Source: Candidatus Dormiibacterota bacterium
GTDB lineage: Bacteria; Chloroflexota; Dormibacteria; Dormibacterales; Dormibacteraceae
Assembly (NCBI GenBank): GCA_035538475.1
Contig: DATLKH010000373.1
Coordinates: 1 to 39,183 of the forward strand
Reading direction: 5' to 3'
DNA length: 39,183 nt
Part shown: in pieces, positions 8,340 through 28,225 of the stretch
How positions within the stretch are numbered: position 1 is the stretch's first letter
Layout of the letters: each line of letters opens with the position of its first letter
The notes under the pieces: generated by a model
The model's input: only the letters and a program-made list of their open reading frames with translations
The model's database searches: none
What the model was told of the DNA's origin: nothing
Made by a program: the position numbers and the translations under genes

Positions 8340-8344
8340 GTTGG

Positions 8345-10107: not shown

Positions 10108-10667
10108 CCGGCGAAACGACCTTTTCCGGCCGCGGCCGCGAGCGGGGACAGTCGCTGGTCGAGTTCGCGGTCTCTTCAGTCGTCCTGCTGCTGCTGGTGG
10201 GCGGGCTGGTCGACGTCGGGCGGGCCATATACATCCAGGAGTCCCTTTCCAACGCCGTCCGCGAAGCGGCGCGGCATGGCGTCTGGTTCGATGCGCCCAG
10301 CCTTTCCCACCCTTACCTCTACGACGGCCAGATCAAATCCGAAGTTGACACCGAGCTGGCGGCCGTCAACCTGCCGGCGGCGACCATCAAGGGCAACTGC
10401 CCGACGCCGGCTGACGGCAACCTGTACCACAACCCGCCCTATCAGTCCTCGTTCTATCCGACTGCCGCGAACCAGCCCTGGCTGTACATCTGCTACAACA
10501 ACCAGGCCGGTCTCGATTATCCGAGCAGCCCCGCCACGAACCTCGCGCAGGAAGACCTCAACGTCATCGTCCTCTATTCCTATGCGCCCCTGACCCCGAT
10601 CGTCACCAACCAGTTCGGGATCTTCAAGGTGGCCGCCAACGAGCACATGACGGTGCAGGGCAGTTGA
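10086..10667 (+). CDS. TadE-like pseudopilin / pilus assembly protein
   Basis: N-terminal ERGQSLVEFAVSSVVLLLLVGGLVDVGRAIY...AVREAARHG matches the TadE N-terminal domain pattern. Confidence 0.7.
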   Translation: MPNPHKAPGETTFSGRGRERGQSLVEFAVSSVVLLLLVGGLVDVGRAIYIQESLSNAVREAARHGVWFDAPSLSHPYLYDGQIKSEVDTELAAVNLPAATIKGNCPTPADGNLYHNPPYQSSFYPTAANQPWLYICYNNQAGLDYPSSPATNLAQEDLNVIVLYSYAPLTPIVTNQFGIFKVAANEHMTVQGS

Positions 10668-11206
10668 TGAAGCGCTACTTCTCTCAGCGCTCGCAGGCCC
10701 TGATCGAGTTCTCGCTCGTTTCGCCCGTGTTGCTGTTGCTGCTGTTTGGAATCGTCGACATGGGCCGCGGCATCTTCTACTACGACACGCTGAACCATGC
10801 GGCGCGGGAGGGTGCGCGCACCGCAGTGCGAGCTTCAAACCAGCTTCCTAACAACGCAGACGTGTTGAACGCCGTCAGCGCTCAGATGCTGGGTACGCCG
10901 GTCTCAGAGGTCTGCGCCCAGGGACCGATCAGCTCCGGCACGCCGCCCGCCAACTCGGCCTGGCTCTACATCACCGAGCCAAACCCGCCATCGACGGTCG
11001 AGACAAGCCCGCCCCCCAACGCTCCAGGCGGCGAATACTCGACTCCCTCGAACGGATCATGCAGCGCGGTCAATCCGGCAGGCGGGAACGCGCAGCTGCA
11101 GGTGACACTGCGCTTCAACCTCGTTTTCATCACGCCCGTGATTTCGCAGGCGGCGGCAAATCACGTGGTGCTTTCCGCGGCCGCGGTTTACCGGACCGAG
11201 TACTGA
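10664..11206 (+). CDS. TadE-like pseudopilin / pilus assembly protein (second copy)
   Basis: QRSQALIEFSLVSPVLLLLLFGIVDMGRGIFYYDTLNHAAREGAR. The start (TTG 10664 or ATG 10667) overlaps the previous stop. Confidence 0.75.
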   Translation: MMKRYFSQRSQALIEFSLVSPVLLLLLFGIVDMGRGIFYYDTLNHAAREGARTAVRASNQLPNNADVLNAVSAQMLGTPVSEVCAQGPISSGTPPANSAWLYITEPNPPSTVETSPPPNAPGGEYSTPSNGSCSAVNPAGGNAQLQVTLRFNLVFITPVISQAAANHVVLSAAAVYRTEY

Positions 11207-13206
11207 TGAAATCCCCACGAAATCAGAGGCTGCGCCGTGATTTCGCGGGGGCCCCTGTGATGCGCCGGCAGCAGGGACAGGCGGTGGTCTTGATCGCGCT
11301 CATGATCACCGTGCTCATCGGGATGGTCGCGCTCGCAGTCGACGGTTCACGTGGCTTTGCGATGCGGCGGGATCTCCAGGCTGCTGTCGACGCGGCTGCA
11401 CTCGCAGCCGGCGACAACTTCCAGCAGACCGCGAGCTACTCCAGCGCCGAGCAGGCGGCGACGTCGATCTTCGGCACCAACCTGCGTCTGTATACGAATC
11501 CGCCTTGCAATCCCTCATACGGCTCGCCCGGTCCGTCACCGCTGACCATCAACTGCACGTATCCCGACGGGACGGTGCTGACGCAGCAAGTCGTCTCGCT
11601 CGGGGCCCAAGGCAGCCAGTTCAACCTCAGCGCCCGGCGCACGCTGCAGCTCAACTTCGGCGGGCTGTTGACCAACGGGGTCAACCCAGCCGTCGCCGGT
11701 GCCGCGAGCGGCACCGTCAACAATTTGCTCTACGCACCCACTGTCGCAGCCCTCAACCAGGGTGGGTGCAGCGGATCCGGCAATCCGCTGAGCGTCAATG
11801 GATCGGGAACGCTGAGCATCACTGGCGATGTCGTCGCCAATGGCACGGTTAATGTGCTCTCGGGCGCAATGTCCGTCGCAGGAGACATCTACGCGCGCTG
11901 CCAGTCGAGCATCGCCGGGGCCACGAACACCTGCTATTCGAGCGGCCTGGGGGGTCCGTGCACTTTTCCGGATGTGATGGGGGCAGTTCGTTCCGGTTTC
12001 AAGATCGCAGACCCGTCGTACCCGATTCCTCCGCTCAACGGCACGGCACAGGGAATACCGGGTGCGAATGTCGTCATCTATCCGGGCACCTACGCCGCCA
12101 ACCCGCTGATCGGCGCGGGCAGGTGCTACTTCCTGACCGCAGGCGTGTACACGTGGCGGTCCGGGTACAGAGCCAACGGCGGCTTCGTCAGCAATGAGCT
12201 GAAGCCACCCGACGAGCCAAGTCCCACCGACATCACACAGCTCGCTGCGAAGCAGTTCTGGAACACCAACGGAGTCAACTGCGCGGGCTCATTCAAGCTC
12301 ACGGCGACGGCCGGTTCCGGATCGACCGTCGGCACCTATGGATTCAGATTGACCTCGATCCGGACGGATACGTACAACGGCGTCAGCTACACGCGGGAGA
12401 GCGCACCGTCGCGGTGCCAGTCACTGACGGTGAACATCTCGCAGGTTGCGACCGCGACCGTGAGCAATGTGCCCGGGGCGCAGGCCTACCGGCTCTACAT
12501 GTCGACCAATGGCTGCACGCCTCCATTCGGACTCGTCTACACCCTCGATGTCACCGGGACTCCGGAAAACGACAACCTCAGCGGCTGTCCGTGGGGGCCG
12601 TGCAGCCTGGGCCAGACGATGGTTTCGGCGCCTGCGTTCATCCTGGCGGGCTTACCTCTGCCCAACGCCGCGGCCGCGCCAGGGACTCCGGGCTCATATC
12701 CGCCGGACGACGAGAGGGCGCCCCTACAAGCCGGACTTCCGAACCAGAACGCGCCGCGGCTGACGCCGCCGGCAGGCGGTCGGGGAAACGAAAACGAGTG
12801 CGTAACGGCAGGCGGCGGCGTGCTGGTTTCGTGCCCTGCAGCAGTCACTCCGGGCGCGGTCGTCTTCTACATCCCCACCGGAGGATGCCTGAATGCGACC
12901 AGCACGAGTGACACGTTCATCTTCAGCGGATATCAGTACGACTGGATCTCGGTATACGAGCCGGGAGCAGGCAATCCGCCGGCCAACACCTGTCCCAACG
13001 TGATCGCCGCCGCAGGCAACTCCGCGTACATCGGCCTCGTCTATTTGCCCTCGGCCAGCCTAAATGTGCAGAGCAGCACGACATTCGAGTCGCAAGCCAC
13101 GGCCGGGATCATGGCCGACACCGTCAGCTTCACCGGGTCGCTGCCGATCATCACCTACGGCGCGGGTTACGCACCGATCCGGCCCGCCAGCAGACTGTCT
13201 AGCTGA
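11206..13206 (+). CDS. TadG-like large pilus-associated protein (Tad N-terminal domain plus ~600-aa Gly/Thr/Ser/Pro-rich extracellular region)
   Basis: RRQQGQAVVLIALMITVLIGMVALAVDGSRGFAMRRDLQAAVDAAALAAG is the TadG-type N-terminus. An ATG at 11206 overlaps the upstream TGA (TGATG). The ORF-track start at 11059 lies inside the previous gene. Confidence 0.7.
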   Translation: MKSPRNQRLRRDFAGAPVMRRQQGQAVVLIALMITVLIGMVALAVDGSRGFAMRRDLQAAVDAAALAAGDNFQQTASYSSAEQAATSIFGTNLRLYTNPPCNPSYGSPGPSPLTINCTYPDGTVLTQQVVSLGAQGSQFNLSARRTLQLNFGGLLTNGVNPAVAGAASGTVNNLLYAPTVAALNQGGCSGSGNPLSVNGSGTLSITGDVVANGTVNVLSGAMSVAGDIYARCQSSIAGATNTCYSSGLGGPCTFPDVMGAVRSGFKIADPSYPIPPLNGTAQGIPGANVVIYPGTYAANPLIGAGRCYFLTAGVYTWRSGYRANGGFVSNELKPPDEPSPTDITQLAAKQFWNTNGVNCAGSFKLTATAGSGSTVGTYGFRLTSIRTDTYNGVSYTRESAPSRCQSLTVNISQVATATVSNVPGAQAYRLYMSTNGCTPPFGLVYTLDVTGTPENDNLSGCPWGPCSLGQTMVSAPAFILAGLPLPNAAAAPGTPGSYPPDDERAPLQAGLPNQNAPRLTPPAGGRGNENECVTAGGGVLVSCPAAVTPGAVVFYIPTGGCLNATSTSDTFIFSGYQYDWISVYEPGAGNPPANTCPNVIAAAGNSAYIGLVYLPSASLNVQSSTTFESQATAGIMADTVSFTGSLPIITYGAGYAPIRPASRLSS

Positions 13207-16200
13207 CCGGTTCGGTCTCCGGCACCGGCGCGGTCGCCTCGACCGGCCCGGCGCCGTTGTGGTCGGTCGGCTCGCCGCGATTTTCGAGATGCGCGATGCG
13301 CCGGTGGAGCGCCGCCGCCGCTTTCGTATCGCCCAGATCTTCGAACCGCTCGATAGCGCCGCGCCATGTCGCCTTCGCGTCCTCGAGGCGGCCCAACCCC
13401 CAAAGCGCGTGCGCTCGCGTGGAGAGGGCGTCGGCCCGTTCCTTGGTCTGCTCGGCGGGAAGCAGCTGCAGCGCGGAATCGATGAGCCTGAGCACGTCGT
13501 CGAAAGCCCCGACAGCGAGCGCCTGCCGCGCCGCGTGGAGCAAGAAGCTCGCGGTGCGACCTGGATTGGCCGCCGTGCCCGCCTGATACAGGTGGTGGGC
13601 AATTTCCGCCGCGCGCTGCTCGGCCAGCTTGCCGTAGACACGCTCGAGCGTATCGGCCACGGCCAGGTGGTAAGCCTGCATGCGCGGCAGCGCCAGTCCG
13701 GCGAGCACGCGTTGACGAACGAGGTCGTGCGCGAATCGATAGCGGTCGTGGCCGAGGGCTGAAATGAAATGGCCGCGCGTAGCTTCGTCGAGCGCGTCAC
13801 GCAGCTCATGGCCTGCCAGCTCGCCGAACGCTTCCAGCAAACTGACCTCGAAATCGCGCCCGATGATGGCGGCCGCGACGAGCATTCGCTGCGCGGGCTC
13901 GCTCAGGCGCTGAATGCGCCGGCCGATCAAGCCGCGCACGCTTTGCGCAAGCTCGAGGTCTTCTTCGGTGAAGCTCGCTTGATGGCCGGCGCCACCGAGC
14001 ATGCTCTCCGACTCGGAGAGATAGAACAGGGAATGCTCGACGAAAAGCGGATTGCCTTCGGTCGCGGCCTGGATGCCGATGAGCTGGACCGGAGTCAGCG
14101 GCGTTTCCGCCAAACCGGCCGCAATCCGCTCGACATCTTGATCCGACAGCCGCCCGACGGCGATGCGCTGTGCGCGGCGGCGGCGCAACATCCGGGAGAG
14201 CGCGGTCGCAAACTGGCGGCTCGAGTCGAGCTCGGTGTCCCAATACGTGCCGAGCACGACCATTCGGCTCGAGCTCGAGCGCTCGGCGAGGTCTCTCAAC
14301 ATCGCGACCGTCGCCTCATCGGCCCAGTGCAGGTTGTCGAGCACGATCATCAGCGGTCTGTTGCCCTGGACCCCCTTCAAGAATTCGTGCACGGACTTGA
14401 AGAGCGTCTCGCGCAGCTTGTCGGCCGGAATCTCGGCAGCCGACGGGAGCGACCGCACCTTCTGGCGGAGATTTGAGGCGAGCAGGGCCAGCAGCGATCC
14501 GTGATGGCCCGTCGCCTCCAGCAGCGTCTTGGCCGTCGCGCTCGCCACAGCCGCGGTCAACACTTCGCGGAACGGTTCGTATGCCTCGCCATCGTTTTCC
14601 AGGCAGCGCCCGCTCAAGACGAGCCATCCCTTGCTTTGGGCTTCCGCGCTGACTTCGCTCGCCAGACGCGAGGCGCCGATCCCTGGTGCGCCAGCCAGGA
14701 AGATCACGCCGCCGGCTCCGGTGGCGGCCCGGTCCATGACCAGTCGAATGTCGAGCCGCTCCTGATCGCGATCCACGAAGCCCTCTGCGGCGGCGACCAC
14801 TTTGGGCGCTTCCTTCACTTCGGTCGGCGTCACCTGGTGCAGGCGCCATCGATCGGGGAAACCCTTCAGCTTGTAGCGGCCGCGGTACTCGAAATGCAGC
14901 TCCGCCACCGGGCCGACCAGCTCGCGGACGATCTCGGATACGAGCACCTGCCCGCCCTTCGCCTTGCCCGCGACGCGCGCGGCCACGTTGACGGCCGCGC
15001 CGAAGATGTCGCCGCCTTCCTCCACGACCTCGCCGGTGTTGACGCCGATCCGGATGCGGATCTTTCGATCCGGGTTTTGCTTGCTGTACTCCGCGATCGC
15101 CGTCTGAATCGCGAGCGCGCACTCGACGCCGTGGCGCGCGGAGCCGAAGCTGATCATGTAGCCGTCGCCGAGTCCTTTGATCCGGCGCCCCGCGTGCTCC
15201 GCGACCTTCTCCTCGATGATGGTCTCGTACGCCTTCATGATTTCGTGAGAGGCGGTGAAACCGCGGGTCGAGAGCAGCTTCGTGGACTCCTCGACGTCCG
15301 TGAACATGATCGTCACGGTGCCTTCGGTCTGACCCACGGCGAGGCTGCCGATGATGGTGTCGGCGGTGAGCGGCCCGGCGGGGTTGACGGGCTGACCCAG
15401 TCCTTCCGCGATCTCGCGCAGTAGGCCCTGTGATGCGCGGTAGCCGGCTTCACCCTGGGGATAGCGGACGGCGGTGAGCAGCCCGGACTCGACGGCGAGG
15501 CGCAGCTCGCGGCCGGCCGACTCCTTGCTGATCTTGCTTTCCCTCGCGTAATCGCTCGCCTTCAGCTCGGAGCCCTCGAATGCATCGGTGAGTGGCTGCG
15601 CCAGGCGCAGGCTCAACCCACGGCGGGAGATGATGCTTTCGATCACGGCTTGAATTCTTCGTGACGCGCCGACCGGTCCTGGGGAGCCTTCGTTCGACCG
15701 CACGGTCGGCAGCATTCCGGAGAAACCGCTGGACGCGGCGGCGAGCTGTCCGAGGGCGGTGGTGGCGCGAGCCATCGCGGTCGCGGCCTCCAGCGCTTGA
15801 GCTCCGTGCAAAGCGCTCGGGAAGCCCGGAATCGGCGTCGTGAGCTCGGGCGGGTAGATCACCTGTGGCGCCGCGGAAACGACCGGCGCGACGGGAGCTA
15901 CACCGGCCGGCGGAGGTGGCGCGTAAGCGGCTGGAGGCAGGGCCGCTGCCGGCGCGGCCTGCGGTTCGGCGGGCGTTTGGGGCGCGGCGGCTTGAAGGTC
16001 GGCCACCGCGGCGCGTGCCGCGTCGATCAGCTTGCGCATCTCTTCCTGCATCTCCGGGGTCTGAGCGGGAGCCGCTGCGGCCGGCGCGGCAGGAGCTGCC
16101 GCCGCCGGGCGTTCCGAGCTGAACGGCACGACCACGACCTGACGGACCACGTTCGGTTCGGCCTTGCCCTGCCCGCTGATGAGCGGGTCCTTGACGACCG

Positions 16201-17998
16201 GCATCATGCTGTCCGAGCCGGCGGGGATGAATCGAGATTTGGCCGGATCGAACAGGTCCTGGTCGACCTGCACGCCGTAGAACGCCGCTTTGTCCAAGGA
16301 CGTCGGGATGTAGCCGGTGGCGTTGAATTCGAGGCGCAGGTCGGGGCCCATGCCGAGCAGGAAGATGTCGCGCAGGATCGGTCCGTTTGCGTCATAGCCG
16401 ACGACCTCCGCGATCTGCGCGATCTTTCGGCGGCCGTCAGGCATGCGGGCCTGGTGCACGATCAGGTTCACTGCGGACGCGATCTGCGCGCGCACTGCTT
16501 CGAACGGAATGTCGATCGACGCCATCATCACCATCGTCTCGAGACGTGACAGCGCGTCGCGCGCGGAGTTGGAGTGAATCGTGGACATCGATCCGTCGTG
16601 ACCGGTGTTCATCGCCTGCAGCATGTCCAGCGCCTCGGCACCGCGGACCTCACCGACGAGGATGCGGTCGGGGCGCATTCGAAGGCTGTTGCGCAACAGT
16701 TGACGAATCGTCAGCTCGCCTTTGCCTTCGACGTTCGGTGGACGGTGCTCGAGCGCGATGACGTGCGGGTGATCGATCTGCAGCTCAGCCGCGTCTTCGA
16801 TCGTGATGACGCGCTGGTTGTGCGGGATGAAGCGCGCAACCACGTTCAGCGTGGTCGTCTTGCCGGAACCCGTGCCTCCGGAAACCAGGATGTTCATGCG
16901 CCCGAGCACGGCCGCTTCGAGGAACTCCGCCATGGCGGGACTCAAGCTCCCTTCGTGCTTGAGGTCCTCCATGCCCAGAACCGCGTCCTTGAACTTGCGG
17001 ATCGTGAGGGCGGGGCCGTGGATGGCGGCGGGCCGGATGATGGCGTTGACGCGGCTGCCGTCGGGAAGACGGGCGTCAACCATCGGATTCAAGCCGTCGA
17101 TGTGACGCCCGGTGGTGGCGACCATTCGCCGGATGGTTTCCAGCAGCTGGTTCTCGTCCTCGAAGCGAACGTCGGCTTTGGTGATCACACCACGGCGCTC
17201 GATGAAGATCTGGTCCGGACCGTTGACCATGATCTCGCTCACCGAGCGGTCGTGCAGCAGGCTGTCGAGCGGGCCGTAACCGACGGCGGCGCGCAGGATG
17301 ATGTCGGCGAGGGCCGACTTCTCCTGGGCGTTGAGCGTGATCCCGTCTTCGAGCAGGAAGCGATCGAGGTGCGTGCGCACGGCGCGCGAGAAGGCCATCG
17401 TGTCGCCGGTCGTGAGGCCGACATCGCGGATGAGGGCGAGGCGGTCTCTGAAATCGTTCGCGAGCTTGTTCAGGTCGCGGCCCTGACGAGCCGCGGCGGC
17501 GAGGATGTCGGATCGGCGCCGCTGCGGCTGTCCGGGCGGCGCGGCCGGCGCGGCCCACATTTCGACGAACTGCATCTCGAGCAGCGAGGGCGAGGCGGCC
17601 AGGGCCGGGATGACCCGGTTCACTTCGGTCAGCCGGATCTTGATCGCAATGCCCTCGGCTTCCTGGGTGACCCCCTGCTCGATGTATGCCGCGATCCACT
17701 CGCCATCGCGGAAGCGAAGGATCGCTTTGCGCGCCTGAGTCTTGTCCCCAGGGTCAGGCTCGAGCTCGGGATCTTCGACCGACCCGAAAACGACGTACTT
17801 GATGTCGCGCGTGGGAATGAATCGTGGTCGCTCGGCGTCAGGTGTCGGGTAGAGCGGATAGCCTTCGCCGCCGTCGAGAATGCGCGAATCGGATTCACCT
17901 TCCTCGAGCCCGCCGTCGAGCCGGTGGACGACCACTTTGAAGCGCATGGGTCCACCTTCAGATTTCCCGGACGGAGGCGCCGTGACGACCTCGCTCAT
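13199..17998 (-). CDS. 1,599-aa multidomain fusion: unknown N-domain, TadA/CpaF secretion ATPase, Pro/Ala linker, wHTH-like segment, class III adenylate cyclase, degenerate STAND (AAA_16-like) NTPase, TPR
   Basis: CpaF core: [17 protein letters not shown], Walker [10 protein letters not shown] (nt 16856-16879), [42 protein letters not shown]. Cyclase: [58 protein letters not shown]: FVDRDQE...[28 protein letters not shown]. All lie in one frame with no stop. GGAG sits 9 nt upstream of the ATG at 17998. Confidence 0.85.
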
Positions 17999-18054
17999 GC
18001 CCTAATCTCCGACCCCGGCTGGCGATCCTAACACTGGCTCGATGCGGTTCAGCT

Positions 18055-19056
18055 TCATTGCGAGCCGAAGCGCTCCGGTGGACGTCTGCGATCGAGCACC
18101 CATTTCGAGCCCGGCATGCGTTTGGCCACGCCCTTGACCTCAGCGGCTCGGGACGCGACCGCCGCCGCGCTGCTGTAGCTCGCCGGCTCGACCATCACGA
18201 CGCCGATGGAAACCGACACCAGCGGGCTGCGGAGCATGTTTCCGTTGCGCTCTTCACTTTCGATCCATCCGCGCTCGCGATCGACGGGGTCGTACAGCGC
18301 CGGGATCGCAGCGTCGAAACGCTTGGTGATCTCACTCGCGATCGCCTCCGCAAGTTTCGGCTCGGTGAGGACGACGAAGTCATCGCCGCCCACGTGTCCG
18401 GCGAAATGCTGGGGCGAGTGATTCTCTTCGAGGACCTCGAGGATGATCGTCGCCAGAGTCTTGATCACGTCGTCGCCGCGAAGGAATCCGTAATGGTCGT
18501 TGTAGCTCTTGAACGTGTCGATGTCCGGATAGAGGACCGCGAAACGCTGTCCATGCGCGAGGCGGCGGGTGATCTCGCGCAGGATGTCGCTGTTGCCGCT
18601 CATGCCGGTAAGCGGGCTCAGTCCACGAGCTGTGGTTGCACGCGTCATCACCGCGCGAAGACGCGCCACCAGCTCTTCCGGCATGAAGGGCTTGGTGACG
18701 TAATCGTCGGCGCCGCTCAGAAGGTGCTCGACCTTGTCTTTCAAGGAGTCGCGCACGGTCAGGAACACGACCGGAATCAGCCGAGTCCGGAAGTCCCCAC
18801 GAAGCTCGTTCATGATCTCGTCGCCGGTGACGTCGCCAAGCATCAGGTCGAGCAGGATGATGTCCGGCCGCAGCTCGACCTCCGCTTCGTGCGCGGCGCG
18901 CCCGTTGTTCACGGTCACGCACTCAAACCCTGCGCGCTCGAGCACGCGCTTCACCAGCCGTAGAACCTGGTCGTCGTCGTCGACCGCGAGCACCATGTCG
19001 CGATGCACCAGGACCGCGTGGTGGCGATCGATGGCCGGGCGGTCGGCGATGCTCAC
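18055..19056 (-). CDS. Response regulator (REC) fused to a GGDEF-family domain with a GGDDF active-site variant
   Basis: REC: MVLAVDDDD, DIILLDLML (acceptor Asp), VFLT, DDYVTKPF. GGDEF-like: SPLTGMSGN, YPDIDTFKSYNDHYGFLRGDDVI, HVGGDDFVVL. A GTG at 19056 forms a GTGA overlap with the upstream stop. Confidence 0.85.
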   Translation of the reverse strand: MSIADRPAIDRHHAVLVHRDMVLAVDDDDQVLRLVKRVLERAGFECVTVNNGRAAHEAEVELRPDIILLDLMLGDVTGDEIMNELRGDFRTRLIPVVFLTVRDSLKDKVEHLLSGADDYVTKPFMPEELVARLRAVMTRATTARGLSPLTGMSGNSDILREITRRLAHGQRFAVLYPDIDTFKSYNDHYGFLRGDDVIKTLATIILEVLEENHSPQHFAGHVGGDDFVVLTEPKLAEAIASEITKRFDAAIPALYDPVDRERGWIESEERNGNMLRSPLVSVSIGVVMVEPASYSSAAAVASRAAEVKGVAKRMPGSKWVLDRRRPPERFGSQ

Positions 19057-19268
19057 GCTCCGTCCTCGTGTCCGCGACGCGGCAGTTTCTCCGTGAGCGC
19101 GATCGCGCGCTCGGCTGCGCTGCGGATCTCGTGAATGTCCGCCTTGATCGCCTCCGGATCGTTCGTCTCGTCGGCGATCAGCTCGCTGTAATTCACGATC
19201 ACGGCGAGCAGGTTGCGAAACTCGTGGATCAGCGCTCGGGTCGGGTCTTCAGCCATCGGTCCGCTCAC
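19053..19268 (-). CDS. 71-aa free-standing DHp/HisKA-like phosphoacceptor domain protein
   Basis: ALIHEFRNLLAVIVNYSELI...EIRSAAERAIALTEKL resembles the H-box helix and second helix of HDFNNLL-type histidine kinases. No catalytic domain follows. GTGA overlaps at both ends support real translation. Confidence 0.6.
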   Translation of the reverse strand: MSGPMAEDPTRALIHEFRNLLAVIVNYSELIADETNDPEAIKADIHEIRSAAERAIALTEKLPRRGHEDGA

Positions 19269-19684
19269 AGCCGCTTCACCAAATGCCAGGAATTGACATC
19301 GCCATGGCGCTCGTAACCCAGCTGGTCGAGAATCGATCGGGCGATGGCGAGGCCGCGGCCCCGCTCGCTTTCGTGTCCAGGCATCTCGTTTGTCAGGTGC
19401 TCATGTGCGGCAGCGCCACGGTCCGTAAAAGTGGCCTCGGCCGTGTGGCCGTCGTAACGCAGCACGTACTCGACCTGATGGTCGGTGCCGACGGGGCGTC
19501 CGTGCGTCAACACGTTGCCTCCGATCTCGCCGAGGGCAATCTCGAAGAGCATGAGGGGGCGGTCGTCGACAGGTCGCTCCAGCGTGTCGCGCAGGTTCGC
19601 GAGCGACCTGTGGATGAGGTCGAGTCCGGGATCGACTTCGGTGAGAAATGCCCGAAACTCAAATTTCTCCTGATTACCCTCCAA
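19265..19684 (-). CDS. RsbW/SpoIIAB-like HATPase_c serine kinase (anti-sigma-factor type)
   Basis: N-box EIALGEIGGNVLTHG, G1-like FTDRG, G2 GRGLAIARSILDQLGYE, ~139 aa, immediately downstream of a STAS gene. TTG start at 19684. Confidence 0.8.
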   Translation of the reverse strand: MEGNQEKFEFRAFLTEVDPGLDLIHRSLANLRDTLERPVDDRPLMLFEIALGEIGGNVLTHGRPVGTDHQVEYVLRYDGHTAEATFTDRGAAAHEHLTNEMPGHESERGRGLAIARSILDQLGYERHGDVNSWHLVKRL

Positions 19685-19687
19685 GGC

Positions 19688-20029
19688 TTAAAGCCCGGTG
19701 AGGGCTTCCTCGACGGTCGCGTAATACGGAAAGACGCGGTCGAGCGTCGTCAGCTCGAGCACGACCCGAACCTGCTGGGTGGGTGCGGCCAGGCGAAGCT
19801 CGCCTTCTTTGCTGCGAATCTGCTTCAGGGCGGCGATCACCGATCCCAGGCCGGTCGAGTCGACGAAGCTCACGCCTTCGAGATCGATCACGACTTTCGG
19901 CGATCCGGCCACCGTCGCGTCGTTGATGGCGTCTTTCAAGATCGGCGCGCCGGCCACGTCGAGCCGCCCAGTAGGGGCGACCACCGTGGCGCCGTTGTCA
20001 GCCTGGCGAGTCTGGATTTCGAGGGCCAT
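19688..20029 (-). CDS. STAS-domain anti-sigma-factor antagonist (RsbV/SpoIIAA-like)
   Basis: VVIDLEGVSFVDSTGLGSVIAALK carries the conserved phosphorylatable Ser in DSTGLG, as in RsbV. The ATG at 20029 is preferred; alternatives are 20047 and 20098. Confidence 0.85.
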   Translation of the reverse strand: MALEIQTRQADNGATVVAPTGRLDVAGAPILKDAINDATVAGSPKVVIDLEGVSFVDSTGLGSVIAALKQIRSKEGELRLAAPTQQVRVVLELTTLDRVFPYYATVEEALTGL

Positions 20030-20102
20030 TTGCAGCCGGAAGAGCATATGGCAGATAGTCCCGACTTCAGCCCACTTGAGGTGGCCAACCGCGGCCACGA
20101 TT

Positions 20103-20165
20103 GCGGATCGTCCGGACCATCCGCGATTTTCGGCCGCGTTGGCACGCTTTGGTCCGGACTATCCG
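20103..20165. promoter_or_regulatory. Candidate operator pair in a divergent intergenic region: 22-bp near-palindrome GCGGATCGTCCGGACCATCCGC plus a 14-bp direct-repeat copy 42 bp away
   Basis: GTCCGGACCATCCG (20110-20123) and GTCCGGACTATCCG (20152-20165) match 13/14. The first sits inside a 20/22 palindrome at 20103-20124. Confidence 0.35.
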
Positions 20166-20181
20166 TGTAAAACTCCAGCCC

Positions 20182-21318
20182 GTGACCGGAAGTCCGGCGG
20201 CGGAACGAGTGCTCGTGGTCGACGACGACGAGGCCCTGGCCAGGGTCACCTGCCGAGTGCTGAGGTCCCGAGGCTTCGAGTGTGACGTCGCTCTTTCCGG
20301 CGCAGAAGCCAGGAAGCTGGTTGAGGCGCAGGACTACGCGATCGCGCTCCTCGACGTGAAGCTGCCCGACGAGTCAGGCTACGGGTTGCTCGAGGAGCTT
20401 CGCGCCACCCGGCCGGACATCGCCATCGTGATGATCTCGGGCGTCGACGACCCCGAGCTTGGAAGAGCAGCGCTCGAGCACGGCGCCTATGCCTACCACG
20501 TCAAACCGGTGGGCGGGACGCAGCTGTATCTGCTGGTCGTCAACAACTTGCGCCGGCGCGCGCTCGAGATCGAGAACCGAGCCAACGTCGAGCGGCTCGA
20601 GGGGTTGCTGCGCGAACGAGCCGAGCAAATGCGTCGAGCGGTCGAGCTCCAAGCGGGGATGCTGCCCCCACCTCCATACAAGGAACGTGGTTTCGAGGTC
20701 GCGGCGCACTTTACGGCTGCGCGCGAGATCAGCGGCGATTTCTACGACTGGTACTGCACGCCAGACCAGCGCTTCATGGTCACGCTCGGTGACGTCATGG
20801 GTAAGGGCCTGCCAGCCTCGTTGATGATGGCGACGGCACGGGCGGCGTTGCGTGGTGCTGCGTCGGTTGAGCCGATGGACGTGGGCTTGAAGCAAGCCGC
20901 CGAGGTCATGTCGGCGGCGCTCGAGGTCAACAACGCGTATGTGACTGTCTTCCACTGCCGCTTCGATCCGGACAGCGGCCGGCTCGAGTACATCGACGCC
21001 GGGCACGGGCACGCCCGGTTGCTGCGGGGTGGGACCGGTCAAGAGCTGCTGCCCCTTCGCAGCCTGCCGATTGGAATGTTTCCCGATGCTCCGTACTCAG
21101 TCGGAAGCGCGATCCTGAATCCTGGCGATTCGTTGGTGGTGTTTTCGGATGGGTTGCTCGACCTGCGCCCCGACCTGGCCACCAAAGACGTCCACCTGCC
21201 GTACGAGGTGCGGCGCGCCACCTCCGCGCAACAGATGGTCGACGCCCTGGCTCAGGGAGCGAGAGGCAGAGAGTTGTTCGACGACGTGACCGTGGTCGCG
21301 CTGAGGCGGACCGGCTAG
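20182..21318 (+). CDS. Response regulator (REC) fused to a PP2C/SpoIIE phosphatase (RsbY/RsbU-like)
   Basis: REC: VLVVDDDEALA, AIALLDVKLPDESG, YHVKP. PP2C: ISGDFYDWY, TLGDVMGKGLPASLMMA, VVFSDGLLD, DDVTVVAL. The GTG at 20182 gives a normal REC N-terminus. The ORF-track start at 20101 would translate the repeat region. Confidence 0.85.
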   Translation: MTGSPAAERVLVVDDDEALARVTCRVLRSRGFECDVALSGAEARKLVEAQDYAIALLDVKLPDESGYGLLEELRATRPDIAIVMISGVDDPELGRAALEHGAYAYHVKPVGGTQLYLLVVNNLRRRALEIENRANVERLEGLLRERAEQMRRAVELQAGMLPPPPYKERGFEVAAHFTAAREISGDFYDWYCTPDQRFMVTLGDVMGKGLPASLMMATARAALRGAASVEPMDVGLKQAAEVMSAALEVNNAYVTVFHCRFDPDSGRLEYIDAGHGHARLLRGGTGQELLPLRSLPIGMFPDAPYSVGSAILNPGDSLVVFSDGLLDLRPDLATKDVHLPYEVRRATSAQQMVDALAQGARGRELFDDVTVVALRRTG

Positions 21319-23591
21319 CGCTCCGCCGCCATTTCTTTGGCCGCCATCCACCGCTCGAGCACGGCGGCGACGATGTGCAGCTTGAGCGGTTTCGTTATGT
21401 AGTCGTCCATCCCCGCGGCCAGGCATCGCTCACGCTCACCATCCAGGTTGTCGGCAGTCACGGCGATGATGGGGATGTGACGTCCGCCGCGCTCGTTGCG
21501 GCGCATGCGCCGGCTGGCCTCGTATCCGTCCATCTCCGGCATCTGGCAATCCATGAAAACCATGTCGTAGCGGCCGTTCGCCACCATCGACACGGCTTCA
21601 CCGCCCGTTCCGGCGACGTCGACTTGATAGCCAAGGCGTTCGATCATTCGCACCGCGACTTTCTGGTTGGCCGCGTTGTCGTCGACCACCAGCACGTGCC
21701 CGTGCTTGGGAGTGGTCGAGACCAGCTCCTCGGCCGCGGCCTCGGGGGGTGCGTGCCGGGTGATGACCGTCTGCAAGACGTCGAATAGCTGGGACGGCCT
21801 GATCGGCTTGACCATCTCCGCGTCGACACCGGGCAGCGGCTTTTCCGACCGGCCCGCAGACGTGAGGAGCACCACCGGCAGGTTGCTCAAGGCCGACTCC
21901 TTTCGAATCTGCGCCGCAACCTCCGCGCCGTCCATCTCGGGCATCATCAGATCGACGATGACAACGTCGATGCGATCGTCGCCGGTGGCTGCCTTCCGCA
22001 GCTCGGACAGAGCCTCCTGTCCGCTGCCGAAGGTTCGCTCCTTCATTCCCCACGACCTCACGTAGCGCTCGAGGATCGTGCGGTTCGTCCGGTTGTCGTC
22101 GATGATCGCGACAGCGGTCCCGGCAAGGCTGACCGGGGGGCGTTCGTGCGCCTTCAGAGCCGCCTCCCGGAACAGGGCCGTGAACCAGAAACGGCTGCCT
22201 TCACCCTTCTTGCTCTCGACGCCGATCTCGCCGCCCATCAGCTGAGTGAGCATGCGAGCGATCGCGAGCCCGAGGCCGGTTCCGCCATGGCGTCGCGTCG
22301 TCGAGCTGTCGACCTGGGGATAGACGCTGAAGACGCGCGCGATCTCTTCCTCTGTGAGGCCGATACCTGTGTCCGCCACCGAGAACTCGATCGACACCCC
22401 GGGCCCCTTCGCCTTGCGACTCTGGGCTCGTACCACGACTTCGCCCGAGTTGGTGAACTTCACTGCGTTGGCGACAAGGTTGATGAGGATCTGGCGCAGC
22501 CGGCCCGCGTCGCCGATCACGAGCTCTGGTACGTCCGGTGCCAGGTCGACGATCAGTTCGATGCCCTTGTTCGATGCCGCCTCTGCGTAGAGCTCGGCCG
22601 CTTCTTCGGCCACATGCTTGGGACTGAACTCGATGGTTTCGAGGTGCAAGCGGCCGGCTTCGATTCGCGAGAAGTCGAGGATGTCGTTGATGATCGCCAG
22701 CAGCGAGTCGCCGGACGAGCGGATCGTGTCCACGTACTCGCGCTGCTCGGCGGTGAGCTCGGTGTCGTCCAGCAAGCTCGTCATGCCGATGATGCCGCTC
22801 AGCGGCGTGCGGATCTCGTGGCTCATGGTGGCGAGGAACTCCGACTTCAAGCGAGTCATCTCCTGCAGTTCGACGTTGCGCTGCTCCAGGTTGGAAAGGA
22901 GCTCGGCTTGCTTGGCTCTGGCCGCGGCGGCGGTGTTCTGTTCGACCTTGAGCTGAGCCACGACGCGATGGACGAGGACGCCGAAAGCGACGAGCAGGAG
23001 TGCTTCGAGGACGGCGGGGGCTGGATCTCCAGTCGCTTGGTTGACGAAGGTTACGAACACCAGGTCCGCCACGCCCAGCGCCGCGCCGACGGCGAACTCC
23101 ATCGTCGAGTAATAGAGAGCGAGGAAGATCAGCGGCAGCAAGACGAAGGGGAATGCGAGCACGACGCTCAGCCCAAACTGCACCTCCAGCCCGAACGCGA
23201 CCGCCAGCCCGACGATCGGCGGGACCGCGCGCAGGTATCGAGGGATGCGATCCCACGGCAGCAGGACCAATGAGCTGCCCAGGACTGTGATCGGGAAAGC
23301 GATCCCAACAGCGACCGGTGTGGCCCCCAGCCAGAGTGGGTACATCGCCAGCACAAATCCGGCCACCACCGGAATCGCGGCGACCACGCCGTTCCGCGGG
23401 GCAGTGTCGATTCGCGCCAGCGGTATGATCACGAGCCCCACACCGAGCAGAAAAGCGATGCTCAACGGAAGCGATGTCACAACCGCGGTGAAGCCGTGGG
23501 CGCTGACCAGACCGACGATGGCAATGCCGAGGAAGGGATAAACCCTGCGGCTCAGACCATCTGCGTGAAGCGGAGTGTTGTGTGAATTCAA
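21315..23591 (-). CDS. Membrane-anchored hybrid sensor histidine kinase with two C-terminal receiver domains
   Basis: ~215-aa multi-TM N-terminus, coiled coil, H-box [19 protein letters not shown] boxes ([25 protein letters not shown]), REC1 AIIDDNRTN...[15 protein letters not shown]2 [11 protein letters not shown]...[12 protein letters not shown]...DDYITKP. Confidence 0.9.
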
Positions 23592-23644: not shown

Positions 23645-26167
23645 TTGGCTCATGAGAGATCTTGCGCGATGCTCGTTAACGCGGCTGAAGGTGCGCGAGC
23701 CACATCTACACTTTGTGCCCTGCGCACCTTCCAAGCCGCCAGGGGGGGCGAGGGGTCTGGGGCATTGCCGGGAACCGATCCGCGGTCGTCGACGAGGATC
23801 TGGAGCCTGGTGCGTCGTGTCACACCTTTCGCCGCCGTCGCGGCGATCTTTGCCCTCCAAGTACTGACCAACATCGGGCCGGTGGTGGCCTTTCCGCTTT
23901 ATCTGGCGGTTGTCCTGGTCACGGCCCTTCAACGCAGCCGCCTGGAATCGACCGCGCTCGCGCTGATTGCAGCGGTGGCGATCTTGAGCTGGTCGTTGAT
24001 CGTCAACGTCGACGTCGCGAACATCTCCGGCGCGGCGGTGCTCGGCGCGCTTTTGGTCGGGCTCGCCATCGGATCGGAGGAGATGGTCCGCCGTTCGCGT
24101 GAGGCGTCAGCGCGCGCCGAAGAGACGCTGAGCCGGCTTCGGGACAGCGAGAAGACGCTGCGAAGCGCGCTCGAGTCGACGAGCGTCGGGCTAGCGCTCG
24201 CCGATCTCGAGGGTCGGTGGCTGGAGGTGAACGAGCCCCTCGCCGCCCTGCTCGGCAGGACGAAGGCGACCCTGCTCGATACCACCCTTGCCGCGATCAC
24301 CGCGCAGCCGGATCGCGCCGAGCTCGAGCACGCGCTGGCGTTGTTGCGGTTCGGTGATGTGATGCATTGGGAAGGCGAGCTGACGGCGCTCCGGCAGGAC
24401 GGCCTGGCCGTGCCGGTATCCCTCTTCATCGCCCGCGTCCCAAGCGTTGTGCACGGGGAACCCGGATTGCTGGTCCAGGCGACCGATGTCTCCCTCCGCA
24501 AAAGGGCGGACGCGCTCCGAGAATGCCTCGGCGCCGCCCGCCACGTCATGGTCACCTCGGTCGATGCGGAGCGGGCGCTGCCGGAGCTGGTGTCGGTCCT
24601 GCGGTCTTTTCCCGACACAGCGGTTGCGCTGTTCTGGATGCTCGATGCAGATCGTCAGTTGCTCGTGTCCCGCTGCGCCTCACCGATGCATGAGGCCCGT
24701 TTCGCGCCTTTCCTGGAAGCCAGCCGGCGTGAATCGCCCGCCGGGGCCGGCTTGATCGGCCGAGCCTGGCAGGCGGGTGTGATCGCGGTTGATGAGGATG
24801 TCGAGCGGGCCGACTCGACGTATGCGCGCCGGGGCGTCGCCCGCGCCGTCGGACTCCGTTCTGTGGTCGCATTTCCCGCGATCTATGACGGCGAGGTGAT
24901 CGGGCTGGTCGAGCTTCTGTCCGAACACGCCAGGGCTCCACGCGAGGACGAGGTCGCGCTGCTGGCGACCCTTGGGGTGGAGATCGGACAGTTCGTCGGC
25001 CGTTCACGCCTTGCGCAGGCCCTGCGCCGGAGCGAGGCGGATCACCGCGCGATCTACGAGCGCTCACCGATCGGCATCGCGCGCGTCAGCAGCACGGGCG
25101 AGCTGCTGGAGGCGAACCCGGCGCTGCTCCGGATGCTCGAGCACGATGGCCCGACCATGCGCGACAACGTTTGGCCCGACCTGCTTCGCTCGTTCGACCA
25201 GGCTGCATCGAGGCTGCGCAAAGCGCCGATGCTCGCCGGGATCACAGACGGCAGCAGCATCCAGGTGCGCGCCGCCACCGGCTCCGGCAAGTGGCTGTGG
25301 CTGCAGATGACGGCCACGTCGATTCCCGACATCACCGGCCGCCCGGAGCACGTGCTCGTGATGGTCGAAGACGTGACCACGGTGCGGGACACGTCGGACA
25401 AGTTGGAGGAGGCGCTGACGGCCCAGCGCGACGCCAACTCGAACCTCGAGAAGATCGACCGGACCAAGAGCGAGTTCCTCAGCATCGTCAGCCACGAGTT
25501 CCGGACTGCGTTGACCGGCATCCAAGGCTTCAGCGAGCTGATCCGCGACGGAGGGCTGGATCCAGACGAGGTCAAGGCTTACGGCGGCTACATCTTCAAC
25601 GATGCCGACCGGGTAAACCGCTTGATCGGTGACATGCTGGACCTCGACCGCATGGAATCGGGGCGCATGACCATGCGCTCTGGCGCGATCGACATCAACG
25701 AAGTGTTGACCGAGGCGATCTCTCGCGCCGCGGCGTCATCCGTCACGGTCGAGTTCAAGTCCGACCTCGATCCTCGGCTGCCGATCGTCGCCGGCGATCG
25801 CGACCGGCTGGTTCAAGTCGTCAGCAACCTGGTCAACAACGCGGTCAAGTACTCGCCGGAGGGCGGGACCGTCACCCTGTCGAGCAGGGTCGAAGGCGAG
25901 ACTGCCCTGATCAGCGTGACCGACACCGGCATCGGCATCCCCGCCGACGAGATCAGTCACGTGTTCGAACGGTTCCGCAGGGTGCGCAGCGGAGCCGCTC
26001 AGGCGATTCCTGGGACTGGCCTTGGCCTCACGATCGTTAAGCAGATCGTGGAGATGCACGGGGGCAAGATCTGGGTCGAGAGCGCGCTCGGGCACGGCTC
26101 GTCGTTCCATTTCACGATCCCGCTGGCCGCCGACGGTGCGGTCGCAGCGCAGCTCCGCCATGGCTGA
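23645..26167 (+). CDS. Sensor histidine kinase (TM, PAS, GAF, PAS, HisKA, HATPase_c)
   Basis: H-box [57 protein letters not shown]-like segment lies around [10 protein letters not shown]...[18 protein letters not shown]. The start is uncertain: the GTG at 23810 is preceded by GGAG and gives an N-terminus that begins at the first TM helix. Confidence 0.85.
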
Positions 26168-26543
26168 GACGCGTGGCCCGCGCACAGTGCTGGTCGCCGA
26201 CGACAACGAGGTGGCGCAACGACTGTGCAAGCGCGTCCTCGAGAAGGCGGGGTACGCGGTGCTGATCGCGGCTGACGGTCTGCAGGCCGTCGACATCGCT
26301 CTGGCACAGCGCCCGGCGATGATTCTCATGGACGTCGCCATGCCGGGCATCGACGGATTGGAGGCGATGAGCCGGATCAAAACCCAGATTCCCGGCATGC
26401 CTGTGGTGATCGCGAGCGCGCACTCGATGGCGAGCGACCGGGAGCGATTTCTCGCCGCCGGCGCCGACAACGTGTTGAGCAAACCGTTTCGACTTGCCGA
26501 CCTCGTGTCAATCGTCGACAACCTCGCTGGAGCGCTTAAGTGA
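26160..26543 (+). CDS. Single-domain response regulator (CheY-like REC)
   Basis: VLVADDNEVAQ, MILMDVAMPGIDG, VIASAH, VLSKPF. The ATG at 26160 overlaps the kinase stop by 8 nt. Confidence 0.9.
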   Translation: MAETRGPRTVLVADDNEVAQRLCKRVLEKAGYAVLIAADGLQAVDIALAQRPAMILMDVAMPGIDGLEAMSRIKTQIPGMPVVIASAHSMASDRERFLAAGADNVLSKPFRLADLVSIVDNLAGALK

Positions 26544-28225
26544 AAGACCTCACGGGGACGCGGCTGGGCCAGTACGAGATCGTCGAGAAGCTGGGCGGAG
26601 GCGGCATGGCGTTGGTGTACCGCGCGATCCAGCAGCCGCTCGGCCGCGAAGTCGCCCTGAAAGCCCTGTCATCGGAGCTGTTTCAGGACGATGGGTTCGT
26701 CAAGCGGTTCGAGTCAGAGGCCAAGACATTGGCGAAGCTCGACCATCCGAACATCCTCCCGATCTACGACTTCGAAGTGCTCGACGGGACCGCGTTCCTG
26801 ACCATGCCGTTGATTCGCGGCGGCACGCTGCGCGACATCTTGAATCGCGGTGTGATGGATCCACTTGCGGCTTGGAGATATCTGCGCGAGATCGGCGATG
26901 GACTGCAGCACGCGCACGACGCGGGGATCGTGCACCGCGACCTGAAACCGACCAACGTCTTGATCCATCAAGACGGGCGGGCGATGCTCGCCGACTTCGG
27001 GCTGGCGCGCGGCGCGGGACAACCCACGCACCTGACCACGATCGGGCTGGCGATCGGGACTCCCGGATACATGGCGCCAGAGCAGGTGATGGGTCACGAC
27101 GTCGATCGACGCGCGGACATCTACGCGATGGGCGTGCTGTGTTTCGAGATGCTGACCGGACGTCTTCCTTATATCGGCGCGAACCGCATGGAGGTGGCGT
27201 ACGCGACTGTCAACTCGCCGATCCCGTCGGCGGTGAAGATCAACGCCAATCTGCCGGACGAGCTCGACACGCTGTTCGAAAAGGTGCTGGCCAAGGATCC
27301 GGCGCAGAGGCCACAGTCCGTGCGTGATCTGCTGGGAATGATGGCCAAGCTGCCACAGCGGCGCACGGCTGCGCAAGGTGCTGTGGCTGCGCCGGCCGCA
27401 GCCGCTTCCGCGACTCCGACGGGTGGAGTTGCGGTCCTGCCCAAGCCGGCGACCGCCGCAGGATCCGATACCGCGTCGATCCGTGTTGTCACGCCGCATG
27501 GCGTGCCTGCGCCACCTCCTCAGAACTTCCATGGATCACCGCCGCCAACGCCCACCGCGGCGGGCTACTCGACCATCCGCACGCTCGAGCTGATGGGCGT
27601 GCGTCCCGCGCGCGCACGCGGGCGCTTCATTCTCAACTCGTATTTCAGCAACTACGTGCATGTGGCACGGGAGGCCGCTGGAGATCGATGGCCGGAAGTC
27701 GCGTACGCCGCCGGGCTCGTTCAGTACATCGAGCAGGATGCGCCCCACGACGATCAGCTTTCTTCGCCGGTCGAATCGTTGAGTCGATTGAATGATGCAT
27801 TCGAGACGATCTTTGGACCAGAAGGCGAAGACGTGATTCGTGCATGGGGCCGGCGGGCGACAGAACGCTGGCTCGCCGAGGGTCGAAGTGGAATGGGCGG
27901 CGCGCGGCGTTTTGTGCCCGGCCGTCAGCGCAAGCTCGCAGGCGTGGTTCGGAATTTCACCGAGGCGATGGACAACGTGCGCGGAGAGCACACTCATTCG
28001 TGGCTGCAGGTTGACGAGCACCAGTTCTGGCTCGTCAACTTCTCCAACATGTTTGCGCTCGGCCGGATCAAGACGGTCAAGTCGTGCTACGTGTGGACAT
28101 CGGCGATTGAAACGATTCTTCGCTGGGCCGGGCTGGCAAACGACTGGTACGTGGAAGAGGTTGAGTGCGGCTCGGTGACCGGGACGTTCGACTGCGCGTA
28201 CGCGATCCGGTCATCGCAGGCCTGA
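26540..28225 (+). CDS. Hanks-type Ser/Thr protein kinase with an Ala/Pro linker and a ~215-aa soluble C-terminal domain (possibly V4R-like)
   Basis: GGGGMALVYRA, VALKAL, HRDLKPTNVL, DFGLAR, GTPGYMAPE. No TM segment. The C-terminus ends EEVECGSVTGTFDCAYAI. A GTGA overlap with the response regulator stop. Confidence 0.9.
   Translation: MKDLTGTRLGQYEIVEKLGGGGMALVYRAIQQPLGREVALKALSSELFQDDGFVKRFESEAKTLAKLDHPNILPIYDFEVLDGTAFLTMPLIRGGTLRDILNRGVMDPLAAWRYLREIGDGLQHAHDAGIVHRDLKPTNVLIHQDGRAMLADFGLARGAGQPTHLTTIGLAIGTPGYMAPEQVMGHDVDRRADIYAMGVLCFEMLTGRLPYIGANRMEVAYATVNSPIPSAVKINANLPDELDTLFEKVLAKDPAQRPQSVRDLLGMMAKLPQRRTAAQGAVAAPAAAASATPTGGVAVLPKPATAAGSDTASIRVVTPHGVPAPPPQNFHGSPPPTPTAAGYSTIRTLELMGVRPARARGRFILNSYFSNYVHVAREAAGDRWPEVAYAAGLVQYIEQDAPHDDQLSSPVESLSRLNDAFETIFGPEGEDVIRAWGRRATERWLAEGRSGMGGARRFVPGRQRKLAGVVRNFTEAMDNVRGEHTHSWLQVDEHQFWLVNFSNMFALGRIKTVKSCYVWTSAIETILRWAGLANDWYVEEVECGSVTGTFDCAYAIRSSQA

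Follow-up and report, generated by a model that had tools for sequence, protein, structure and literature searches.

A conserved partner-switching locus with a free-standing DHp protein and a REC-GGDDF regulator beside a Tad motor gene in Candidatus Dormibacterota

The stretch of DNA analysed here, referred to as the window, covers 39,183 nt of contig DATLKH010000373.1 from a Candidatus Dormiibacterota bacterium. At positions 18055-23591 it contains a module of the partner-switching type, in which the genes for a phosphatase, a STAS protein and an RsbW-fold kinase are found together with those for a small DHp protein and a response regulator carrying a GGDEF-like domain, next to the motor gene of a Tad pilus locus. 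Proteins identical to those of the window were found only on short metagenome contigs. The genes on which the analysis is centred are listed below.

13199..17998, minus strand: TadA-cyclase-STAND protein of 1599 amino acids, called the megaprotein in the following (Pfam T2SSE 228 bits, Guanylate_cyc 79 bits, AAA_16 87 bits)
18055..19056, minus strand: REC-GGDEF-like response regulator, 333 amino acids (Pfam Response_reg 82 bits, GGDEF 61 bits)
19053..19268, minus strand: HisKA-type DHp hairpin, 71 amino acids from a GTG start (Pfam HisKA 27.9 bits, barely over the cutoff of 26.9 bits)
19265..19684, minus strand: RsbW/SpoIIAB-fold GHKL serine-kinase-type protein, 139 amino acids (Pfam HATPase_c_2 42.5 bits, E=8e-11)
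19688..20029, minus strand: STAS anti-sigma-antagonist-type protein, 113 amino acids (Pfam STAS 74.6 bits; NCBIfam ant_ant_sig 80 bits, cutoff 53)
20101..21318, plus strand, divergent from the STAS gene: REC-PP2C (SpoIIE-family) phosphatase (Pfam Response_reg 75 bits, SpoIIE 128 bits)
21315..23591, minus strand: polytopic membrane hybrid histidine kinase of layout HisKA-HATPase_c-REC-REC (Pfam)

The order of these genes had been described in an initial annotation made from the sequence, and it was confirmed, along with all the junctions, by direct reading and Pfam searches. The TAA stop of the STAS gene is separated by 3 nt from the TTG start of the kinase gene; the latter overlaps the DHp gene by the four nucleotides GTGA, and a second GTGA overlap joins the DHp gene to that of the regulator. 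A gap of 56 nt, with a GGAG ahead of the ATG, leads to the megaprotein gene. The REC-PP2C gene is divergent from the STAS gene and convergent with that of the hybrid kinase, their stops sharing the sequence CTAG at 21315-21318. The STAS protein probably starts at the ATG at 20029, rather than at 20098 as in the longest open reading frame (ORF), in agreement with the orthologue consensus MSLEVQ. The true start of REC-PP2C is probably located downstream of 20101, near 20152, and DHp may start at an alternative ATG, at 19256, which is chosen by gene callers and gives a product of 67 amino acids. No terminator-like site was found between the minus-strand genes in the interval 17998-20100; promoter and terminator scans, and the folding of the 56-nt gap, gave nothing above shuffled sequences.

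Related loci were collected by a scan with one genome per species, by which 101 were found and 80 kept, nearly all from Candidatus Dormibacterota or from metagenome-assembled genomes (MAGs) of the same lineage named "Chloroflexi bacterium CF_". Gene order was compared by a tblastn map of the loci and by Pfam annotation of three long contigs (L003, L006 and L007). Order and orientation are the same in all 80 loci long enough: REC-PP2C, STAS, kinase, DHp, REC-GGDEF, megaprotein, TadG, TadE, TadE, CpaB, TadB. A gene order kept in no relative, which the initial annotation had named as a refuting outcome, is clearly not what is observed, and the arrangement is not due to chance. Identity to the window proteins is 50-67% for the kinase, 65-87% for DHp, 70-87% for STAS, 72-86% for the regulator and 92-97% for the TadA core. 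The 4-nt overlap of the kinase and DHp genes is found in 70 of the 80 loci, that of the DHp and regulator genes in about 58 of 78, and a gap of 2-4 nt between the STAS and kinase genes in 53 of 64. These junction statistics indicate that the four small genes form a translationally coupled unit, of which the motor gene is a co-oriented neighbour. In one MAG (DATFVI01, isolate SMAG_U9460), the module is present on two contigs, L068 and L086, by duplication or because the bin is mixed.

The STAS protein contains the phosphorylatable Ser in the segment FVDSTGLGS, which is invariant in 79 orthologues. The kinase retains intact N, G1 and G2 boxes, residues E53/N57, D88xG90 and G109RG111 being invariant in the orthologue alignment. 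Homologues of the kinase are abundant, with identities of 50-90%, and all have a length of about 139 amino acids. A single-sequence phmmer search of the kinase against PDB gave no significant match. An AlphaFold2 (AF2) model built from 72 sequences was confident, with a predicted local distance difference test score (pLDDT) of 89, and its best Foldseek matches were SpoIIAB (1L0O, template modelling (TM) score 0.75), RsbW (6M37) and UsfX (8IH8), with TM scores of 0.73-0.75; the RsbW-like domain of LvrC (9QIH) was also among the top matches. By this model, the fold of the kinase is closest to that of dedicated Ser kinases of the SpoIIAB/RsbW/UsfX type. In REC-PP2C, which is encoded divergently in all loci and has STAS as its putative substrate, the acceptor Asp and the PP2C motifs are conserved among 73 orthologues. 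As read from their catalytic and acceptor residues, the PP2C, STAS and kinase proteins retain an intact Ser-phosphorylation cycle.

DHp is encoded between the kinase and the regulator as a polypeptide of its own. Its H-box reads LIH(D/E)FRNLL; the His is found in 77 of 77 sequences, and is always followed by D or E at position H+1 and by Asn at H+4. Nucleotide diversity along the ORF is 0.16, 0.09 and 0.40 at codon positions 1, 2 and 3, a pattern that marks it as translated and under selection. Its stand-alone homologues number more than 1400, and the 120 listed are all 65-90 amino acids long. No catalytic ATP-binding domain is present in the 71 residues of the protein, nor in the 120 listed homologues, and a single-sequence search of PDB with DHp gave no significant match. 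The HisKA motif H-(D/E)-x-x-(N/T) serves both kinase and phosphatase reactions. Since DHp has no catalytic domain, it would receive phosphate from a receiver, as do Spo0B and ChpT, or from a catalytic domain acting in trans, or it would be a phosphatase.

The response regulator aligns with DgcR (6ZXC) and PleD across both domains, and its receiver acceptor region is conserved among orthologues. The two domains named in the initial annotation were thus found, the cyclase motif, however, being GGDDF, which departs from GG(D/E)EF and is invariant in 74 orthologues. The Asn and Asp recognising guanine (N335 and D344 in PleD) and the first metal-binding Asp are present, in alignment with PleD and other cyclases, in the context D-I-D-x-F-K-x-x-N-D ... 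G-D; the Asp at the guanine-recognition position assigns the regulator to the canonical type and not to the Hypr type, which has Ser. No RxxD inhibitory site was found in the regulator five residues before the motif (HFAGHVGGDDF).

The reading favoured here, to which a probability of about 0.4 is assigned, is that a partner-switching cassette has been recruited to gate a DHp/REC-GGDDF output independently of a sigma factor, and is co-expressed with the Tad motor. The scheme postulates protein-protein contacts, a direction of phosphate flow, an activity of the GGDDF protein and an effect on the pilus. The neighbouring histidine kinases would set the phosphorylation of the REC-PP2C receiver, a PAS-GAF kinase with a single receiver doing so in every genome and the hybrid kinase in about three quarters of them. 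The phosphatase would remove the phosphate on the STAS Ser, and the RsbW-fold kinase would restore it. The resulting switch would gate the co-translated DHp/REC-GGDDF pair instead of a sigma factor, most likely by binding of STAS to the cyclase-type regulator, as for the pairs HsbA-HsbD and SiaC-SiaD. In Pseudomonas aeruginosa, HsbA binds the diguanylate cyclase HsbD in a phosphorylation-dependent manner and controls motility and biofilm (PMC5085249), and unphosphorylated SiaC binds and activates the diguanylate cyclase SiaD (PMC8457831, PMC7647112); it is because of these precedents that STAS is proposed as the part touching the cyclase. The part of DHp would be to donate phosphate to the receiver of REC-GGDDF, to transfer it or to remove it, and the output of this regulator, either a cyclic dinucleotide or a binding event, would act on the adjoining Tad motor.

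Several observations weigh against this reading. Synthesis of cyclic di-GMP (c-di-GMP) by the regulator is uncertain, because its cyclase motif is the non-canonical GGDDF: among proteins with this motif, the enzyme GSU1937 has been reported to be active, and PA3258 to be without effect (PMC8835794). The junction between regulator and megaprotein is loose: the two genes overlap in only 15 of the 71 loci, and in the others they stand 50-140 nt apart. Unrelated flanking genes, encoding a GT4 glycosyltransferase, ThuA/GFO oxidoreductases and a Ser/Thr kinase, are equally syntenic; synteny by itself therefore overstates functional linkage and does not suffice to connect the switch with the pilus. 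In the megaprotein, no receptor domain for c-di-GMP was found, and its N-terminal domain gave only sub-threshold matches to DUF6982 and an unusable model. Finally, the nearest relatives of the kinase outside Dormibacterota likewise have no adjacent sigma gene. The initial annotation is partly supported on the whole: of the link it drew between c-di-GMP and the Tad pilus, the adjoining and co-oriented position of the megaprotein gene stands, and the non-canonical motif and the equal synteny of unrelated neighbours weaken the rest.

The absence of a sigma factor, on which the initial annotation had laid stress, was found to extend beyond the module. No sigma factor gene was detected by Pfam in the 39-kb window, nor in the Pfam tables of the three long contigs, and tblastn searches with RpoD, SigF and RpoE over 1.28 Mb of window and loci revealed no sigma-70-family gene within about 10 kb in 88 loci; with these three queries, divergent extracytoplasmic function (ECF) sigma factors could escape, a gap which the Pfam tables cover locally. 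The further claim, that the place of the sigma factor had been taken over by other outputs, was not sustained. Homologue searches with the kinase, DHp and the megaprotein N-domain gave 120 listed matches which were all orthologues from the same lineage, and the context outside the phylum was obtained from an exhaustive profile search of 1.8 billion representative sequences and from a metagenome scan with outgroup sequences. In the profile search, the Dormibacterota clade of the kinase scores about 250 bits, after which there is a sharp drop to 104 bits or less; beyond it lies a large family whose members have about 140 amino acids and identities of 32-39%. The nearest outgroup contigs, from metagenomes, carry an operon in which GAF-PP2C, STAS and kinase are encoded on the same strand and which ends after the kinase; no DHp, GGDEF, TadA or adjacent sigma gene was found in these operons. 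The absence of a linked sigma gene is hence normal for this kinase clade, and is no proof of a non-sigma output. From the point at which the outgroup cassettes end, DHp/REC-GGDDF can be recognised as a lineage-specific addition to an older PP2C/STAS/kinase unit. Compared with the ordinary cassette, the changes in Dormibacterota would be a GAF sensor swapped for a receiver, an inverted phosphatase gene and the added DHp/REC-GGDDF pair. In several of the outgroup operons (L124, L127, L140, L151), an ORF of 139-142 amino acids with no Pfam match lies directly upstream of GAF-PP2C.

These results bear on a conventional explanation, in which the locus encodes an anti-sigma module, the kinase sequesters a sigma factor encoded elsewhere, and DHp, REC-GGDDF and the Tad genes merely share its transcript or its neighbourhood. 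Such an arrangement would not be unusual, as many actinobacterial orphan STAS/kinase pairs have unlinked sigma targets. It is in keeping with the SpoIIAB/RsbW/UsfX type of the kinase fold and motifs, with the sigma-less outgroup cassettes and with the fusions found among the best 150 kinase relatives, whose multi-domain members are joined to STAS, PP2C, PAS-PP2C or REC-PP2C and never to HisKA or GGDEF; LvrC provides a case of a phosphorelay feeding an RsbW-like anti-sigma domain (PMC13269768). The explanation is nevertheless judged somewhat unlikely: 4-nt overlaps bind the genes for DHp and REC-GGDDF to that of the kinase in the majority of the 80 genomes, the addition of the two genes is specific to the lineage, and the 88 loci show no sigma gene over a distance of about 10 kb.

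The position of DHp suggests another alternative, in which the two small proteins make up a split histidine kinase: the RsbW-fold protein would phosphorylate the His of the free DHp, which would pass the phosphate to REC-GGDDF, and unphosphorylated STAS would compete for the kinase and shut the transfer off. The succession of kinase, DHp and receiver with 4-nt overlaps, the full H-(D/E)-x-x-N motif kept by a DHp which has no catalytic domain of its own, and the intact ATP-binding boxes of the kinase are all compatible with it. Moreover, the DHp and catalytic domains of EnvZ, when separated, reconstitute kinase activity in vitro. Against it, no fusion of kinase and DHp was found among the 120 listed kinase homologues, the 120 listed DHp homologues or the best 150 representatives, the kinase fold is nearest to dedicated Ser kinases, and the intact STAS Ser and PP2C already account for an ATPase. 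A mirror-tree analysis with partial correlations, performed on 12 proteins or segments from 32 genomes, was noisy and gave no kinase-DHp signal (partial correlation -0.04), which is a weak test. A split kinase is accordingly rated as very unlikely.

The neighbouring histidine kinases are candidate sources of phosphate for the receivers. The hybrid kinase, found in the window and 47 loci and lacking in 17 of the 64 informative ones, is an accessory part of the locus. Of the RsbK-RsbY-RsbV-RsbW cascade said in the initial annotation to be present in all its parts, STAS, kinase and REC-PP2C are found with intact residues, while a counterpart of RsbK is missing from those 17 loci. Two further genes are located next to that of the hybrid kinase:

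23645..26167, plus strand: PAS-GAF-PAS histidine kinase (Pfam, synteny)
26157..26543, plus strand: single-domain receiver REC1 (Pfam Response_reg 103 bits; conserved in 55 loci)

The PAS-GAF kinase and the single receiver are present in every related locus, and the former is a likely source of phosphate for the receivers. Altogether, three predicted DHp domains and five predicted receivers make up an intact His-Asp set at the locus. The REC1 gene shares nucleotides with the genes on both sides of it, at the end of that for the PAS kinase and at the start of one for a Ser/Thr kinase. The resulting plus-strand trio at 23645-28225, made of the PAS-GAF-PAS kinase, REC1 and a Ser/Thr protein kinase of 561 amino acids with overlapping starts and stops, is kept in every locus reaching that far and brings a third kind of phosphorylation signalling into the vicinity.

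A relay separate from the switch may be built with the same parts. In this alternative DHp, like Spo0B or ChpT, would take phosphate from REC1 or from the receivers of the hybrid kinase and hand it on to REC-GGDDF and REC-PP2C, or it would be a phosphatase, and its adjacency to the Tad genes would reflect a general conservation of the genome. The hybrid kinase does have two receivers, with no Hpt domain found in the window; the universal PAS kinase and the single receiver resemble the upstream half of a KinA/Spo0F-like relay; and the whole 30-kb region is syntenic, unrelated genes included. This alternative is considered distinctly unlikely, since DHp is unchanged in the 17 loci that have no hybrid kinase, and its gene is translationally coupled to that of the kinase and not located near REC1.

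The megaprotein, on which the favoured DHp/REC-GGDDF output would act, is conserved at full length in 51 genomes and contains the only Tad ATPase domain of the locus. It consists of an all-beta N-domain (residues ~18-150), a TadA/CpaF ATPase (~220-600), an Ala/Pro-rich linker, a class III cyclase (890-1050), a STAND NTPase and a helical, TPR-like tail. The NCBIfam TadA model TIGR03819 scores 326 bits on it, below the equivalog cutoff of 373, and the Walker A motif of the ATPase is GGTGSGKTT. The class III cyclase residues (two metal Asp, the Lys/Asp pair and Asn/Arg), assigned by eye to FTDVE, KGLGDG and a third segment, are invariant or nearly so in the 51 genomes. The TadA core is 92-97% identical in 69 genomes, as against the 50-67% of the RsbW-fold kinase, indicating an unusually strong constraint on the motor.

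The N-domain, of about 130 residues, is confined to this family, its 147 matches being all fragments of orthologues. Profile and Pfam searches gave sub-threshold matches to DUF6982 for 22 of 41 members; this family is not mentioned in the papers found by a literature search. The AF2 model obtained from the 41 sequences (pLDDT 46.6) was too poor for a fold search. Identification as an FHA or PilZ domain was considered and dropped, as the signature motifs are absent. After the N-domain comes a segment PxRRRSD (residues 158-164), which is invariant and includes an RxxD-like motif; that it may be a nucleotide-binding site is speculation. A second conserved segment, between linker and cyclase (15400-15700, minus strand; residues ~780-870), resembles a winged-helix or helix-turn-helix (HTH) domain, and no Pfam family was found for it at E up to 5.

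The remaining Tad genes of the window are the following:

7464-10107, minus strand: TadC, TadB and CpaB
10086-13206, plus strand: two TadE genes and TadG

A Flp pilin motif, searched by regular expression, TadZ/CpaE, a prepilin peptidase and a secretin were not found in the window. A MerR-family HTH gene (7108-7536, minus strand; MerR_1, E=5.5e-17) follows directly after TadC on the downstream side, with an overlap at the 3' end of TadC when the longest ORF is called. At the beginning of the window, three successive polytopic membrane ORFs (157-3971, plus strand) matched no Pfam family when either strand was searched; the first 4 kb show a strong negative AT skew, which is accounted for by the hydrophobic coding of these ORFs.

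The arrangement may be compared with a number of described systems. It shares with RsbK-RsbY-RsbV-RsbW-SigB of Bacillus cereus a hybrid kinase beside a REC-PP2C, a STAS protein with a phosphorylatable Ser and a GHKL Ser kinase, but a sigB-like gene is absent from the operon and from the surrounding 10 kb, and DHp and REC-GGDDF follow the kinase instead. Behind its polytopic membrane region, the hybrid kinase shows only HisKA, HATPase_c and two REC domains, so that orthology to RsbK is unsupported. In the HptB-HsbR-HsbA-HsbD pathway, a multistep phosphorelay similarly feeds a REC-PP2C/kinase that sets STAS phosphorylation, the contact of STAS with a cyclase being putative in the present case (PMC5085249). 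HsbR, however, is a fusion of REC, PP2C and kinase, the cyclase HsbD sits in the membrane and has no receiver, and HsbA also acts through FlgM/FliA; phosphate enters that pathway via Hpt and not via a DHp, and there is no fusion to a pilus motor. The SiaABCD system of P. aeruginosa has a PP2C, an anti-sigma-like kinase, a phosphorylatable small protein and a cyclase in the same operon, and differs in having no receiver, no DHp and no link to Tad. SiaC belongs to the DUF1987 family and is no Pfam STAS protein.

Partner-switching trios with no known sigma output include HmpU/HmpV/HmpW of Nostoc punctiforme and those of SypA, BtrV and RbaV; in several of these systems the STAS protein is the output, as is HmpV in the Hmp system, which controls type IV pilus-driven motility (PMC8256260). 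Unlike the present locus, none of these has a DHp, GGDEF or motor-ATPase gene in the operon. In Leptospira, LvrB-LvrC is another point at which His-Asp signalling meets an RsbW-like protein of Bergerat fold (PMC13269768; PDB 9QIH); LvrC combines receiver and RsbW-like domain in one polypeptide and is assumed to have a sigma factor as its target, whereas the kinase described here is free-standing and accompanied by a STAS/PP2C pair. The megaprotein recalls mycobacterial cyclase-STAND-TPR proteins such as Rv0386, in having a class III cyclase, an AAA_16/STAND NTPase and a helical repeat tail (PMC2447327), but the unit is fused behind a TadA/CpaF ATPase and lacks the LuxR-type C-terminus. As to DHp, its nearest functional models differ in structure. 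Spo0B and ChpT pass phosphate between receivers by means of a DHp-type hairpin with a phosphorylatable His and keep a degenerate catalytic-like domain, whereas the protein described here is a bare hairpin of 65-90 amino acids with the HisKA motif H-(D/E)-x-x-N.

Partner switches with outputs other than a sigma factor have been described in only a handful of proteobacterial and cyanobacterial cases, mostly with no known target. The locus adds an operon that is fixed across an abundant, uncultured soil phylum and has three candidate outputs beside the switch: a bare DHp, a REC-GGDDF regulator and a pilus motor. The features that set it apart are the bare DHp between kinase and REC-GGDDF, its fixation in Dormibacterota and its position before a TadA-cyclase-STAND motor. 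If DHp were a partner or substrate of the RsbW-fold kinase, Ser phosphorylation and partner switching would be joined to His-Asp signalling in a new way; if the two formed a split kinase, partner switching, which has so far been found to release a sigma factor or to free a STAS protein, would directly gate His-Asp transfer at a pilus motor. The TadA-cyclase-STAND fusion, in turn, suggests that the pilus motor of these bacteria may both receive and emit second-messenger signals.

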